Assembly: GCF_024223415.1 (NCBI RefSeq)
Contig: NZ_CP100500.1
Reading direction: 5' to 3' (one strand)
DNA length: 64,000 nucleotides
DNA from: Escherichia coli
GTDB lineage: Bacteria > Pseudomonadota > Gammaproteobacteria > Enterobacterales > Enterobacteriaceae
How positions within the stretch are numbered: position 1 is the first letter of the stretch; the number at the start of each line of letters is the position of its first letter. The notes under the pieces were generated by a model. The model saw nothing but the letters and a program-made list of their open reading frames with translations. It ran no database searches and was not told the DNA's origin. This document shows positions 5,876 to 61,095 of the stretch, piece by piece. The position numbers were made by a program, and so were the translations under genes.

Positions 5876-5951
5876 TGGCTCCTCTGACTGGACTCGAACC
5901 AGTGACATACGGATTAACAGTCCGCCGTTCTACCGACTGAACTACAGAGGA
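5876..5951 (-). tRNA. asnT: tRNA-Asn (GTT)
   Basis: Reverse complement reads TCCTCTGTAGTTCAGTCGGTAGAACGGCGGACTGTTAATCCG...GAGGAGCCA with cloverleaf and CCA end. Confidence 0.9.
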
Positions 5952-6942: not shown

Positions 6943-7032
6943 GGAGAGATGCCGGAGCGGCTGAACGGACCGGTCTCGAAAACCGGAGTAGGGGCAACTC
7001 TACCGGGGGTTCAAATCCCCCTCTCTCCGCCA
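6943..7032 (+). tRNA. serU: tRNA-Ser (CGA)
   Basis: GGAGAGATGCCGGAGCGGCTGAACGGACCGGTCTCGAAAACCGG...CTCTCCGCCA, long variable arm, anticodon CGA. Confidence 0.9.
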
Positions 7033-13892: not shown

Positions 13893-14400
13893 AGTGTATT
13901 CCTTATTGTTGCTTAGTTAGGGTAGTCACTATATTTGCGACTGAGCTGGTCGTTATTTTTACCCAGGCTGGAAAATTGAGTCAATATATCGAAAGCGGTA
14001 GTCGGCGGGCGTAAGTATGTAATGATGATGCTGCACTGGTGTTGAATATTATTCACACCAACTTTTCCTTATTGAGCAACGCCGTCGCAAGTGGCCTCAA
14101 TGATTTTAGACCATTATCAGAGATCCGGGGCGGCAGGGAGAGATTTAGTGCTGTGGAATATTGTGGTGCTGATGAATATTTATATCCCGGATTGGCAGAG
14201 AAAAAGCTTTTTTCATGCACTATTTTTGCAAATATTTCTATATGGACGGCGGTTTTGTTGCGGATTAATTCATAAAGAAATGCATTTGGGTGTTGGCTGG
14301 AAGAAACGCTGGTAGATTTTATTGAGCCAGGAGGGGCGGGGTAATGTGCTGTATCGATATGCTTTGGCAATTGCGTGTGCCGCAGATGGAGATGAAATGC

Positions 14401-14483: not shown

Positions 14484-15671
14484 TTAGAACTGGTAGACTA
14501 AGCCCACAGCAACGATATCATCGGTAGCGATACCGTTTTCTTTGTAGAAGTCGTCGTCGTTGTCCAGCAGGTTGATTTTGTAATCAACGTAGGTGGACAT
14601 GTTTTTGTTAAAGTAATAGGTCGCACCGACTTCAACGTATTTAACCAGATCTTTGTTTGCGTAGTGATGATTACCCTGGCTATCAAAGTTATCACCATTC
14701 AATCCGCCTAAATCCTTACCTTTAGATTGCAGGTAAGCGATGGACGGGCGCAGACCGAAGTCGAACTGATACTGAGCAACAACTTCAAAGTTTTGGGTTT
14801 TGTTAGCGATGGCATCAGCATCACCGTAACCAGTCATGTTACGGGTTTCAGCATACATAGCTGCTAAGTAAACGTTATTAGCGTCGTATTTAGCACCAAC
14901 GGTCCATGCTTCTGCTGTTTCACCGCCAGCAGTTGCATCGAAGCGATCTCCATAACGAGTGTTATGCAAACCTTTGTGAACCTGATTGTCAGTACGGTCA
15001 GAATTAGAATATGCAGCACCCAGACTTAAACCAAAGTCAAAGTCATAGGAAGTGGACATACCGTAACCGTCGCCGTTCTCTTTAGCAAGTTTACGGCCAT
15101 TCCCGTTACCTGAACCTTCTTGATCAAATAATCCGCTTTTCTCGTTGTTACCTTGATACTGGAGTGCAAAGTTCAGACCATCAACTTGACCAAAGAAACC
15201 ATTGTTACGATAGGTTGCTACGCTGTTAGCACGACCGTTCATGAAGTTGTCGGCACCAGCATAGGTATCGCCACCAAATTCTGGCAGCATATCGGTCCAT
15301 GCTTCGATGTCATATACGACACCGTAGTTACGACCATAGTCGAAAGTACCATTCTGACCAAAGCCTAAACCTGCAAATGCCAGACGCGTTGCGGTATTAC
15401 CTTTGTCGCTTTCAGGACCGTTTGCGCCAATGTTAAATTCCCACTGACCATAACCAGTGAATTGGTCAGCGATCTGAGTTTCACCTTTGAAACCGATACG
15501 GGCATATGACATGTCGCCATCGCTGCCAGCATCATCAGAGAAGTAGTGCAGGCCCGCTACTTTTCCGTACAAATCCAGTTTATTACCATCTTTATTATAG
15601 ACTTCAGCCGCATTTGCTGCGCCAGCAACTAATAACGCCGGGACCAGCATTGCCAGAACTTTTCTTTTCAT
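14484..15671 (-). CDS. yedS: OmpC/OmpF-family outer-membrane porin, apparently intact (395 aa)
   Basis: [38 protein letters not shown]...VGLVYQF, typical porin N-terminus and C-terminal Phe. Confidence 0.85.
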
Positions 15672-15980
15672 TATGTATTCCCTTGTGATTATAATCTTCA
15701 TGGATATATCAATAAGTGCCGTTATCCAAAAAAGCACATTTGGATACTATTCTATGAAGTTCATTTTATTTTAAGGGTTACATGTAACAAATGTATTTAA
15801 AAGATTTCAAAATGTTTCCAATCTATTTAATATAATTCAGAATTATGAATTCTAGATATAAGCATTCATGAGATTTATAAATATATATCAATATGTTATG
15901 AGTTAATCGGAAAGATAGGGAGTATCAATGAGTGTTGCGCTAAACGGCTGGTGTGATCACGCGCATATTAATGAAGGCAT

Positions 15981-16005
15981 AAAAAAAAGCCGGCATCATG
16001 CCGGC
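15981..16005 (-). terminator. Hairpin GCCGGCAT-C-ATGCCGGC with 8-nt T-run on the minus strand; possible terminator of an RseX-like sRNA
   Basis: Strong GC stem followed by TTTTTTTT on the minus strand in the yedS-yedR intergenic region, with no protein gene upstream on that strand. Confidence 0.45.
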
Positions 16006-16235
16006 CCAAAAAATATAAACAAGACGATAAAAGGCTAATAACGGGGTTATCATGACACAGAAATCAAAAAAGGTATAATTGAATTCGGTGCTAATATATT
16101 GTTTAGGTGAATTAATAAAACCATTACCATAGATAATAATAAATCTTTATTGCTGTTTTTCCGGTAATTATTGCCATTGCGCAAAAATTATCTATTTGTT
16201 CAAAAAATGATTGAGTCTTGACTGGCTCATCCAAT

Positions 16236-16601
16236 GTGAAAAAATGTGACTTTTATCACATAATAGTACTAAGTCTGAATTTTCCGGGTTATCTCAAAAT
16301 GGAATACGGTTCGACAAAGATGGAAGAGAGACTCTCTCGCAGTCCTGGTGGCAAACTGGCTTTGTGGGCTTTCTATACATGGTGTGGCTATTTTGTCTGG
16401 GCAATGGCGCGTTACATCTGGGTGATGAGCCGGATCCCCGATGCCCCTGTGTCGGGATTTGAAAGCGATTTAGGCTCTACCGCGGGAAAGTGGTTAGGGG
16501 CACTGGTTGGCTTTTTATTTATGGCTCTGGTCGGGGCATTGTTAGGCAGCATTGCCTGGTACACCCGACCTCGTCCCGCACGTAGCAGACGCTATGAATA
16601 A
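16236..16601 (+). CDS. yedR: Inner-membrane protein YedR (start uncertain; 121 aa if GTG at 16236)
   Basis: ...MEYGSTKMEERLSRSPGGKLALWAFYTWCGYFVWAMARYIWVMSRIPD..., two TM helices. Confidence 0.7.
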   Translation: MKKCDFYHIIVLSLNFPGYLKMEYGSTKMEERLSRSPGGKLALWAFYTWCGYFVWAMARYIWVMSRIPDAPVSGFESDLGSTAGKWLGALVGFLFMALVGALLGSIAWYTRPRPARSRRYE

Positions 16602-24405: not shown

Positions 24406-24492
24406 AACACATCAGATTTCCTGGTGTAACGAATTTTTTAAGTGCTTCTTGCTTAAGCAAGTTTCATCCCGACCCCCTCAGGGTCGGGATTT
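24406..24492 (+). ncRNA. dsrA: DsrA small regulatory RNA (87 nt)
   Basis: AACACATCAGATTTCCTGGTGTAACGAATTTTTTAAGTGCTTCTTGCTTAAGCAAGTTTCATCCCGACCCCCTCAGGGTCGGGATTT, matches DsrA including the terminator. Confidence 0.95.
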
Positions 24493-60792: not shown

Positions 60793-60868
<76 letters not shown>

Positions 60869-60922
60869 GTTTAAAAGACATCGGCCTCAAGCGGATGTCT
60901 GGCTGAAAGGCCTGAAGAATTT

Positions 60923-60996
60923 GGCGCGTTAACAAAGCGGTTATGTAGCGGATTGCAAATCCGTCTAGTCCGGTTCGACTCCGGAACGCGCCTCCA
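60923..60996 (+). tRNA. cysT: tRNA-Cys (GCA)
   Basis: GGCGCGTTAACAAAGCGGTTATGTAGCGGATTGCAAATCCGTCTAGTCCGGTTCGACTCCGGAACGCGCCTCCA. Confidence 0.95.
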
Positions 60997-61008
60997 CTTT
61001 CTTCCCGA

Positions 61009-61095
61009 GCCCGGATGGTGGAATCGGTAGACACAAGGGATTTAAAATCCCTCGGCGTTCGCGCTGTGCGGGTTCAAGTCCCGCTCCGGGTACCA
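61009..61095 (+). tRNA. leuZ: tRNA-Leu (TAA)
   Basis: GCCCGGATGGTGGAATCGGTAGACACAAGGGATTTAAAATCCCTCGGCGTTCGCGCTGTGCGGGTTCAAGTCCCGCTCCGGGTACCA. Confidence 0.95.

Follow-up and report, generated by a model that had tools for sequence, protein, structure and literature searches.

The rseX small RNA gene and its terminator between yedS and drpB in an Escherichia coli strain carrying a minority rseX allele

The region between yedS and drpB in this Escherichia coli genome raises the question of what a strong terminator-like hairpin is doing where no protein gene lies behind it. A GC-rich hairpin is present at 15989..16005 and is followed on the minus strand by a run of T, as an earlier sequence-only reading had noted; coordinates here and below are those of the window, the whole stretch of 64,000 nucleotides that was analysed. 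That reading also held that no protein gene lies upstream of the hairpin on the minus strand, and the annotations of K-12 and of PigCaeca_2, a near-identical strain with 99.8% identity to the window, bear this out, since drpB, yedJ, dcm and vsr are all on the other strand. It had suggested that the hairpin might end the small RNA RseX, reported from the yedR-yedS intergenic region of K-12, and had drawn attention to a 36-codon ORF on the plus strand that overlaps the hairpin and would be antisense to such an RNA. We conclude with high confidence that positions 15981..16071 of the minus strand are rseX, and that its RNA is one with predicted repression of ompA and ompC through pairing by nt 30-51.

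RseX was first predicted computationally, in 2002. Its isolation followed in 2006, when in multicopy it was found to relieve cells of their need for the essential protease RseP and, as that work is summarized in later papers, it is a 91-nt primary transcript that binds Hfq and lowers the levels of ompA and ompC mRNA (Douchin et al. 2006, as cited in PMC8313858, PMC7648144 and PMC1804206). In K-12 it is an Hfq-dependent, trans-acting RNA whose weak sigma-70 promoter is kept silent by H-NS, and both a sigma-70 consensus and a start mapped by 5'-RACE have been described for the gene (PMC8313858). The native RNA went undetected for nearly two decades, a northern blot signal being obtained only in hns mutants, where a shorter form of about 75 nt is seen alongside it, and otherwise from plasmids; fimB and ihfB are further direct targets, both of them repressed (PMC8313858).

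Identity of the gene and its terminator

In an Rfam scan of the whole 64-kb window, run at the gathering threshold, RF01401 (rseX Hfq binding RNA) is matched over its full length at 15982..16071 on the minus strand. The match spans model positions 1-94 of 94 without truncation, and its score of 97.8 bits exceeds the gathering score of 50 (E 3.2e-12 in the 64-kb window). The annotated K-12 ncRNA rseX (b4603; NC_000913.3 2033649..2033739) aligns end to end and without gaps to 16071..15981, with 83 of the 91 bases identical, and its annotated 3' end falls on 15981, about where the sequence-only reading had expected a minus-strand transcript to stop. The flanking genes are also those expected: in the MG1655 record rseX sits between drpB (formerly yedR) and the yedS pseudogene, the gene order in the window (hchA, yedS, rseX, drpB, yedJ, dcm, vsr) is that of K-12, and the K-12 and PigCaeca_2 annotations have rseX and yedS pointing the same way, with rseX the upstream one. 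The identification as rseX rests on the Rfam match, the K-12 alignment and this gene order together, and the Rfam scan and the alignment with annotated rseX, both of which the earlier reading had proposed as checks, uphold its tentative attribution of the terminator to RseX.

The window gene is like K-12 rseX in locus, orientation, 91-nt length and terminator. Since rseX is annotated in K-12 and has been an Rfam family for years, the finding is an ordinary one; its outcome is that the earlier call is validated and that the coordinates of rseX in the window are fixed (Table 1), where the 5' end follows the K-12 annotation and the 3' end is set at the close of the U tail.

Table 1. Features of the rseX locus in the window
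Feature	Coordinates	Strand	Basis
rseX gene, 91 nt	15981..16071	-	Rfam RF01401 and K-12 b4603 alignment
Putative rseX -10 hexamer, -12..-7, TTCAAT	16078..16083	-	Position relative to annotated +1
Sigma-70 promoter-like site ATGACA-16-TATAAT, 11/12 consensus, back-to-back with rseX start	16052..16079	+	Promoter scan
Allele block 1, nt 6-9: UGAU here, AUUA in K-12	16063..16066	-	Pairwise and multiple alignments
Allele block 2, nt 24-27: AACC here, GCUU in K-12; lengthens hairpin 1 to 7 bp	16045..16048	-	Alignments and fold
Hairpin 1, nt 20-36, 7-bp stem UGAUAAC/GUUAUUA, loop CCC	16036..16052	-	Fold
Predicted target-pairing core, nt 30-51, GUUAUUAGCCUUUUAUCGUCUU	16021..16042	-	Accessibility-corrected local duplex search
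U-rich single-stranded stretch GUUUAUAUUUUUU, nt 52-64, just upstream of terminator	16008..16020	-	Sequence; unpaired in MFE and centroid folds
Terminator stem-loop, 9 pairs including two G-U, loop UGA; 7-bp core 15989..16005	15987..16007	-	Terminator scan and fold
Run of eight U, RNA 3' end, terminator tail	15981..15988	-	Sequence
36-codon ORF (ATG, 36 aa), antisense to rseX nt 34-91; judged a chance ORF	15928..16038	+	ORF list

The plus-strand sequence of the hairpin is GCCGGCA-TCA-TGCCGGC, in which a 3-nt loop caps a stem of 7 bp; before it stand eight A that are eight T, or U in the RNA, on the minus strand. In the minus-strand RNA two terminal G-U pairs extend the 7 bp to nine pairs (16007..15987), six of them G-C, and the terminator folds at -14.6 kcal/mol, a stability that none of 200 dinucleotide shuffles reached. 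It is the sole terminator-like site that the terminator scan found in 15650..16350, where 0.4 would be expected from shuffles. The seven core pairs show no variation among 14 distinct Escherichia alleles, and the T run is polymorphic in length, with T8 in three, T7 in seven and T6 in one of the 11 E. coli alleles sampled. Read along the plus strand, CCAAAAAAUAU comes after the hairpin and there is no U tract; the hairpin therefore terminates in the minus direction only. The hairpin and its eight T are the intrinsic (Rho-independent) terminator of rseX.

Two other readings of this conserved segment would take it away from an RNA gene. The hairpin is palindromic and its plus-strand version also folds, at -13 kcal/mol, as might be expected of a stand-alone element, either a leftover terminator or a repeat, that is not the 3' end of an RNA gene; yet the 91-nt unit that it closes fits both the rseX covariance model and the annotated K-12 gene, only the minus strand has a U tract, and the segment occurs at one place per genome (median 1) and so is no dispersed repeat, which leaves this reading a negligible probability. 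The other, that the plus-strand ORF encodes a 36-aa protein and that the conserved sequence is constrained by coding, we consider highly improbable. The ORF does exist and does overlap the hairpin, as the sequence-only reading had it, and an AGGGAG is found at 15917..15922, 5 bases before its ATG. Its ATG is kept in 17 of 17 Escherichia sequences, a purine-rich motif (AGGGAG, AGGGGG or AGGAGG) stands 5 nt upstream in the E. coli alleles, and PGAP has called the ORF once, as the 41-aa hypothetical protein WP_000564324.1 of strain OkiPb01713 (L009 481..606 (-)), a call that is probably an over-call. Against this, the ORF crosses the A/T run of the terminator, where length variation (T6, T7 or T8) throws it out of frame beyond codon 20, and its product would be 29, 36, 38 or 41 aa long with four unrelated C-termini among the 11 E. 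coli alleles; a stop codon cuts it to 7 aa in two other Escherichia lineages; and codons 2-20 hold 48 distinct single-base variants that show no bias among the three codon positions (15/15/18), 12 of them synonymous and 36 nonsynonymous. The Shine-Dalgarno-like motif degenerates outside E. coli, the ORF has no Pfam match, the promoter scan placed no plus-strand promoter-like site upstream of it, and the curated K-12 record has no gene at its position.

The frameshifts, the truncation to seven codons in two lineages and the absence of codon-position bias show that the ORF is not coding, and the earlier suggestion that it might be translated does not survive, the reading frame being conserved neither within E. 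coli nor across Escherichia. We conclude that the ORF is a chance by-product of AT-rich sequence and not a gene, and that the seeming conservation of its start reflects nucleotide similarity within the genus. It is thereby removed as a candidate gene at a place where RefSeq pipelines occasionally call a hypothetical protein. A minus-strand ORF at 15940..16053 (37 aa, from RseX nt 19) was likewise rejected: it runs through the terminator, which would leave the RNA without a stop codon, and it lacks a Shine-Dalgarno sequence. With these readings set aside, we return to the segment as the gene for RseX.

The RNA and its predicted pairing with porin mRNAs

The RNA of the window allele is 5'-UUUUUUGAUUUCUGUGUCAUGAUAACCCCGUUAUUAGCCUUUUAUCGUCUUGUUUAUAUUUUUUGGGCCGGCAUGAUGCCGGCUUUUUUUU-3'. 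Its predicted fold has four parts, namely a weak hairpin at nt 20-36, a single-stranded middle, a U-rich stretch at nt 52-64, and the terminator at nt 65-85 with its U tail. The energy of hairpin 1 is -2.7 kcal/mol in the window allele and -1.7 in K-12, weak in both cases, and the hairpin overlaps the 5' part of the predicted pairing core; its 7-bp shifted register and the register drawn in Rfam both fit all alleles and are indistinguishable. Counts of base pairs over 14 distinct Escherichia alleles gave no covariation in either hairpin, because the stems do not vary, and covariation thus leaves the RseX structure neither supported nor contradicted beyond the energy calculations. The U-rich stretch is at the usual position of an internal Hfq-binding module and would probably act as one. 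The U tail would correspondingly be the 3' Hfq-binding tail, as the literature on RseX and the general rule for Hfq-dependent small RNAs suggest.

The site at which RseX binds ompA has not been mapped experimentally, according to PMC8313858. A windowed search for local duplexes, corrected for the cost of opening both RNAs and using the K-12 ompA and ompC leaders, those of the strain itself lying beyond the window, predicts that RseX nt 37-51 pair with ompA -22..-7, covering the GAGG Shine-Dalgarno sequence (hybrid -17.1, total -12.2 kcal/mol), and that nt 30-44 pair with ompC -14..+1 through 14 contiguous bp (hybrid -16.5 kcal/mol). For the best local hybrids, shuffled RseX matched or beat the real RNA in 2 of 150 trials with ompA and in 1 of 150 with ompC. 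Whole-length duplexes of RseX with 100-nt leaders, computed by RNAduplex-style folding, were long and uninformative and no better than those of shuffles. Nucleotides 30-51 are identical in the window and in K-12 and nearly invariant across the genus. The adjacent yedS was considered as a cis-neighbour target and rejected, the windowed duplex search of RseX against its leader giving no convincing pairing (best total energy -5.9 kcal/mol).

The most likely mode of action is the published one, Hfq-assisted pairing with porin mRNAs, with the pairing sites as computed here. Transcription would end at the intrinsic terminator (16007..15987) plus its U tail, and in the released RNA the conserved single-stranded core would be free to pair with the Shine-Dalgarno and start-codon regions of the ompA and ompC mRNAs. 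Such pairing, assisted by Hfq and lying across the ribosome-binding sites, would block the ribosome and so lower porin synthesis.

A minority allele, its putative promoter and an opposing site

All eight differences between the window and K-12 rseX fall into two 4-nt blocks, and nt 28-91 are identical. Of 5,426 complete E. coli genomes, 81 carry an allele of the window type at an identity of at least 99% and 226 at 95-99%; for the K-12 type the number at an identity of at least 99% is 2,170. The window rseX is 95-97% identical to that of other Escherichia species, E. whittamii among them, and 91% identical to the K-12 type; as it is closer to the other species than to K-12, the GAUAAC form is probably ancestral. 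The strain goes on record as one with a minority rseX allele, in which the 5' end is altered, the first hairpin lengthened and the putative -10 a variant one, with an intact yedS adjoining. This yedS is a porin gene at 14484..15671 on the minus strand that encodes 395 aa with a full Porin_1 domain, the K-12 copy being a pseudogene; its product shares 97% identity with the Escherichia sp. E1V33 protein and 94% with the one from E. albertii, and RefSeq labels it 'porin OmpC' in related strains. Between hchA and yedS lies a 78-aa GTG ORF (14039..14275, plus strand), a hypothetical protein in the PigCaeca_2 annotation. Elsewhere in the window there are a full-length gene for the small RNA DsrA at 24406..24492 on the plus strand (Rfam RF00014, 102.5 bits) and, in the Rfam scan, five tRNA genes, one at 5879..5951 (minus strand), one at 6943..7029 (plus strand) and a cluster of three at 60793..61092 (plus strand).

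The hexamer at -12..-7, which we infer to be the rseX -10 element, is TACAAT in K-12 and most alleles, and TA...T is found in most Escherichia alleles. In the window it is TTCAAT, differing at -11 by T for A, a change that creates an EcoRI site (GAATTC); the Escherichia lineage L017 has the same TTCAAT, with rseX otherwise conserved. No base of a -10 element is normally more critical than the A at -11, and with T in its place the rseX promoter may be weaker in this strain. The promoter scan gave no minus-strand sigma-70 site at the rseX start at its threshold. A minus-strand promoter-like site at 16194..16167, from which a longer RNA would be made, was rejected as the rseX promoter, its sequence not being conserved in K-12.

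The plus-strand promoter-like site that stands back-to-back with the rseX start is the only one in the 64-kb window to reach at least 11/12, a level that 7% of shuffled versions of the intergenic region (30% GC) also attain. Its -35 hexamer is the reverse complement of an invariant UGUCAU inside rseX, its -10 hexamer overlaps the putative rseX -10 by 2 bp, and its predicted start, near 16086, is 15 bp from the rseX +1; 16 of 17 Escherichia alleles retain the two hexamers. We reject it as the mapped drpB promoter, which lies between the old GTG start (16236) and ATG-22 (16299) (PMC7648144). It could be a spurious promoter in AT-rich DNA kept off by H-NS, could serve drpB as a second promoter, or could compete with the promoter of rseX. 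A literature search found no paper linking RseX to a bidirectional promoter.

The last of these roles bears on how much RseX is made. Competition from the stronger opposing plus-strand site, together with H-NS, would offer an explanation for the near-absence of RseX in the wild type and would make the present strain a natural low-RseX variant; we hold this to be unlikely. Were it true, part of the conservation at the 5' end of rseX would reflect the opposing promoter, whose -35 lies inside the gene, and the T at -11 would tip the balance further toward low RseX here. A related doubt is whether the gene is rseX by descent only, an unexpressed relic whose promoter is weakened at -11 and overlapped by a stronger opposing one, so that no functional RseX is produced. 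The departure from TACAAT, the failure of any minus-strand promoter to pass the scan and the nearness of the 11/12 site all lean in that direction, as do the want of detectable native RseX in wild-type K-12 (PMC8313858) and the absence of the locus from about 10% of genomes, together with the several losses described in PMC3318445. However, the body of the RNA is much better conserved than its flanks across Escherichia, unlike sequence that is never expressed, and both the seed and the terminator are intact in the window allele; moreover, the -10 hexamer is itself a putative assignment, and L017 shows that TTCAAT can accompany an otherwise conserved rseX. A relic is thus improbable, and we continue to read the locus as an rseX gene whose RNA is predicted to act on ompA and ompC. 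The natural promoter variants and the opposing site are cheap leads on the natural inducing condition of RseX.

Distribution, conservation and comparison with other porin regulators

When complete E. coli genomes were searched with a 111-nt query covering rseX and its -10 region, the locus was found in 4,876 of 5,426, once per genome. Some 10% of these genomes (about 550) have no rseX match, and the gene is therefore dispensable. It has been described as one of the few Hfq-dependent small RNA genes that vary in presence within E. coli and Shigella, having been lost in S. dysenteriae, E. coli HS and S. flexneri (PMC3318445). Two of the approximately 4,880 matches are on records labelled as plasmids.

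Species-representative genomes were searched by one exact-pattern scan with 19 fixed bases, followed by Rfam, a procedure that does not imply absence outside Escherichia, including in Salmonella and Citrobacter, both of which the literature mentions. The gene was found in E. albertii, E. whittamii, Escherichia sp. E1V33, Escherichia sp. MOD1-EC7003 and two divergent "E. coli" representatives. Outside Escherichia no locus with the 19 fixed bases passed Rfam in these genomes, and we regard the matches in Pluralibacter, Snodgrassella, archaea and others as chance ones. In the six further Escherichia loci tblastn places yedS beside rseX in all, and hchA too where the locus extends far enough; drpB is upstream of rseX in all five that reach there, the sixth ending just upstream of rseX. 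The order drpB <- rseX -> yedS -> hchA is seen in K-12, PigCaeca_2 and five other Escherichia lineages, including E. albertii and E. whittamii, and these comparisons place the rseX locus in the common ancestor of Escherichia. Relative to the window, rseX is 87-97% identical in the other Escherichia lineages and its 150-nt flanks are 63-87% identical, below rseX in every lineage; this better conservation of rseX than of its flanks indicates purifying selection on the RNA.

Among known regulators, MicA and RybB are like RseX in being Hfq-dependent, trans-acting small RNAs that pair at or near the translation-initiation regions of omp mRNAs, and in that their overexpression relieves envelope stress, with ompA and ompC as common targets (PMC8313858; PMC1804206). 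Their sequences are unrelated to that of RseX, and whereas both depend on sigma-E, RseX stands outside the sigma-E regulon, is silenced by H-NS and has no known inducing signal. MicF and MicC resemble RseX in another respect, their genes being those of porin-repressing small RNAs that adjoin a porin gene, which we take to be ompC in the case of micF and ompN in that of micC; MicC, moreover, also represses ompC (PMC1804206). The transcription of micF and micC runs away from the porin gene beside each of them, whereas rseX lies upstream of its porin neighbour, yedS, and is transcribed in the same direction.
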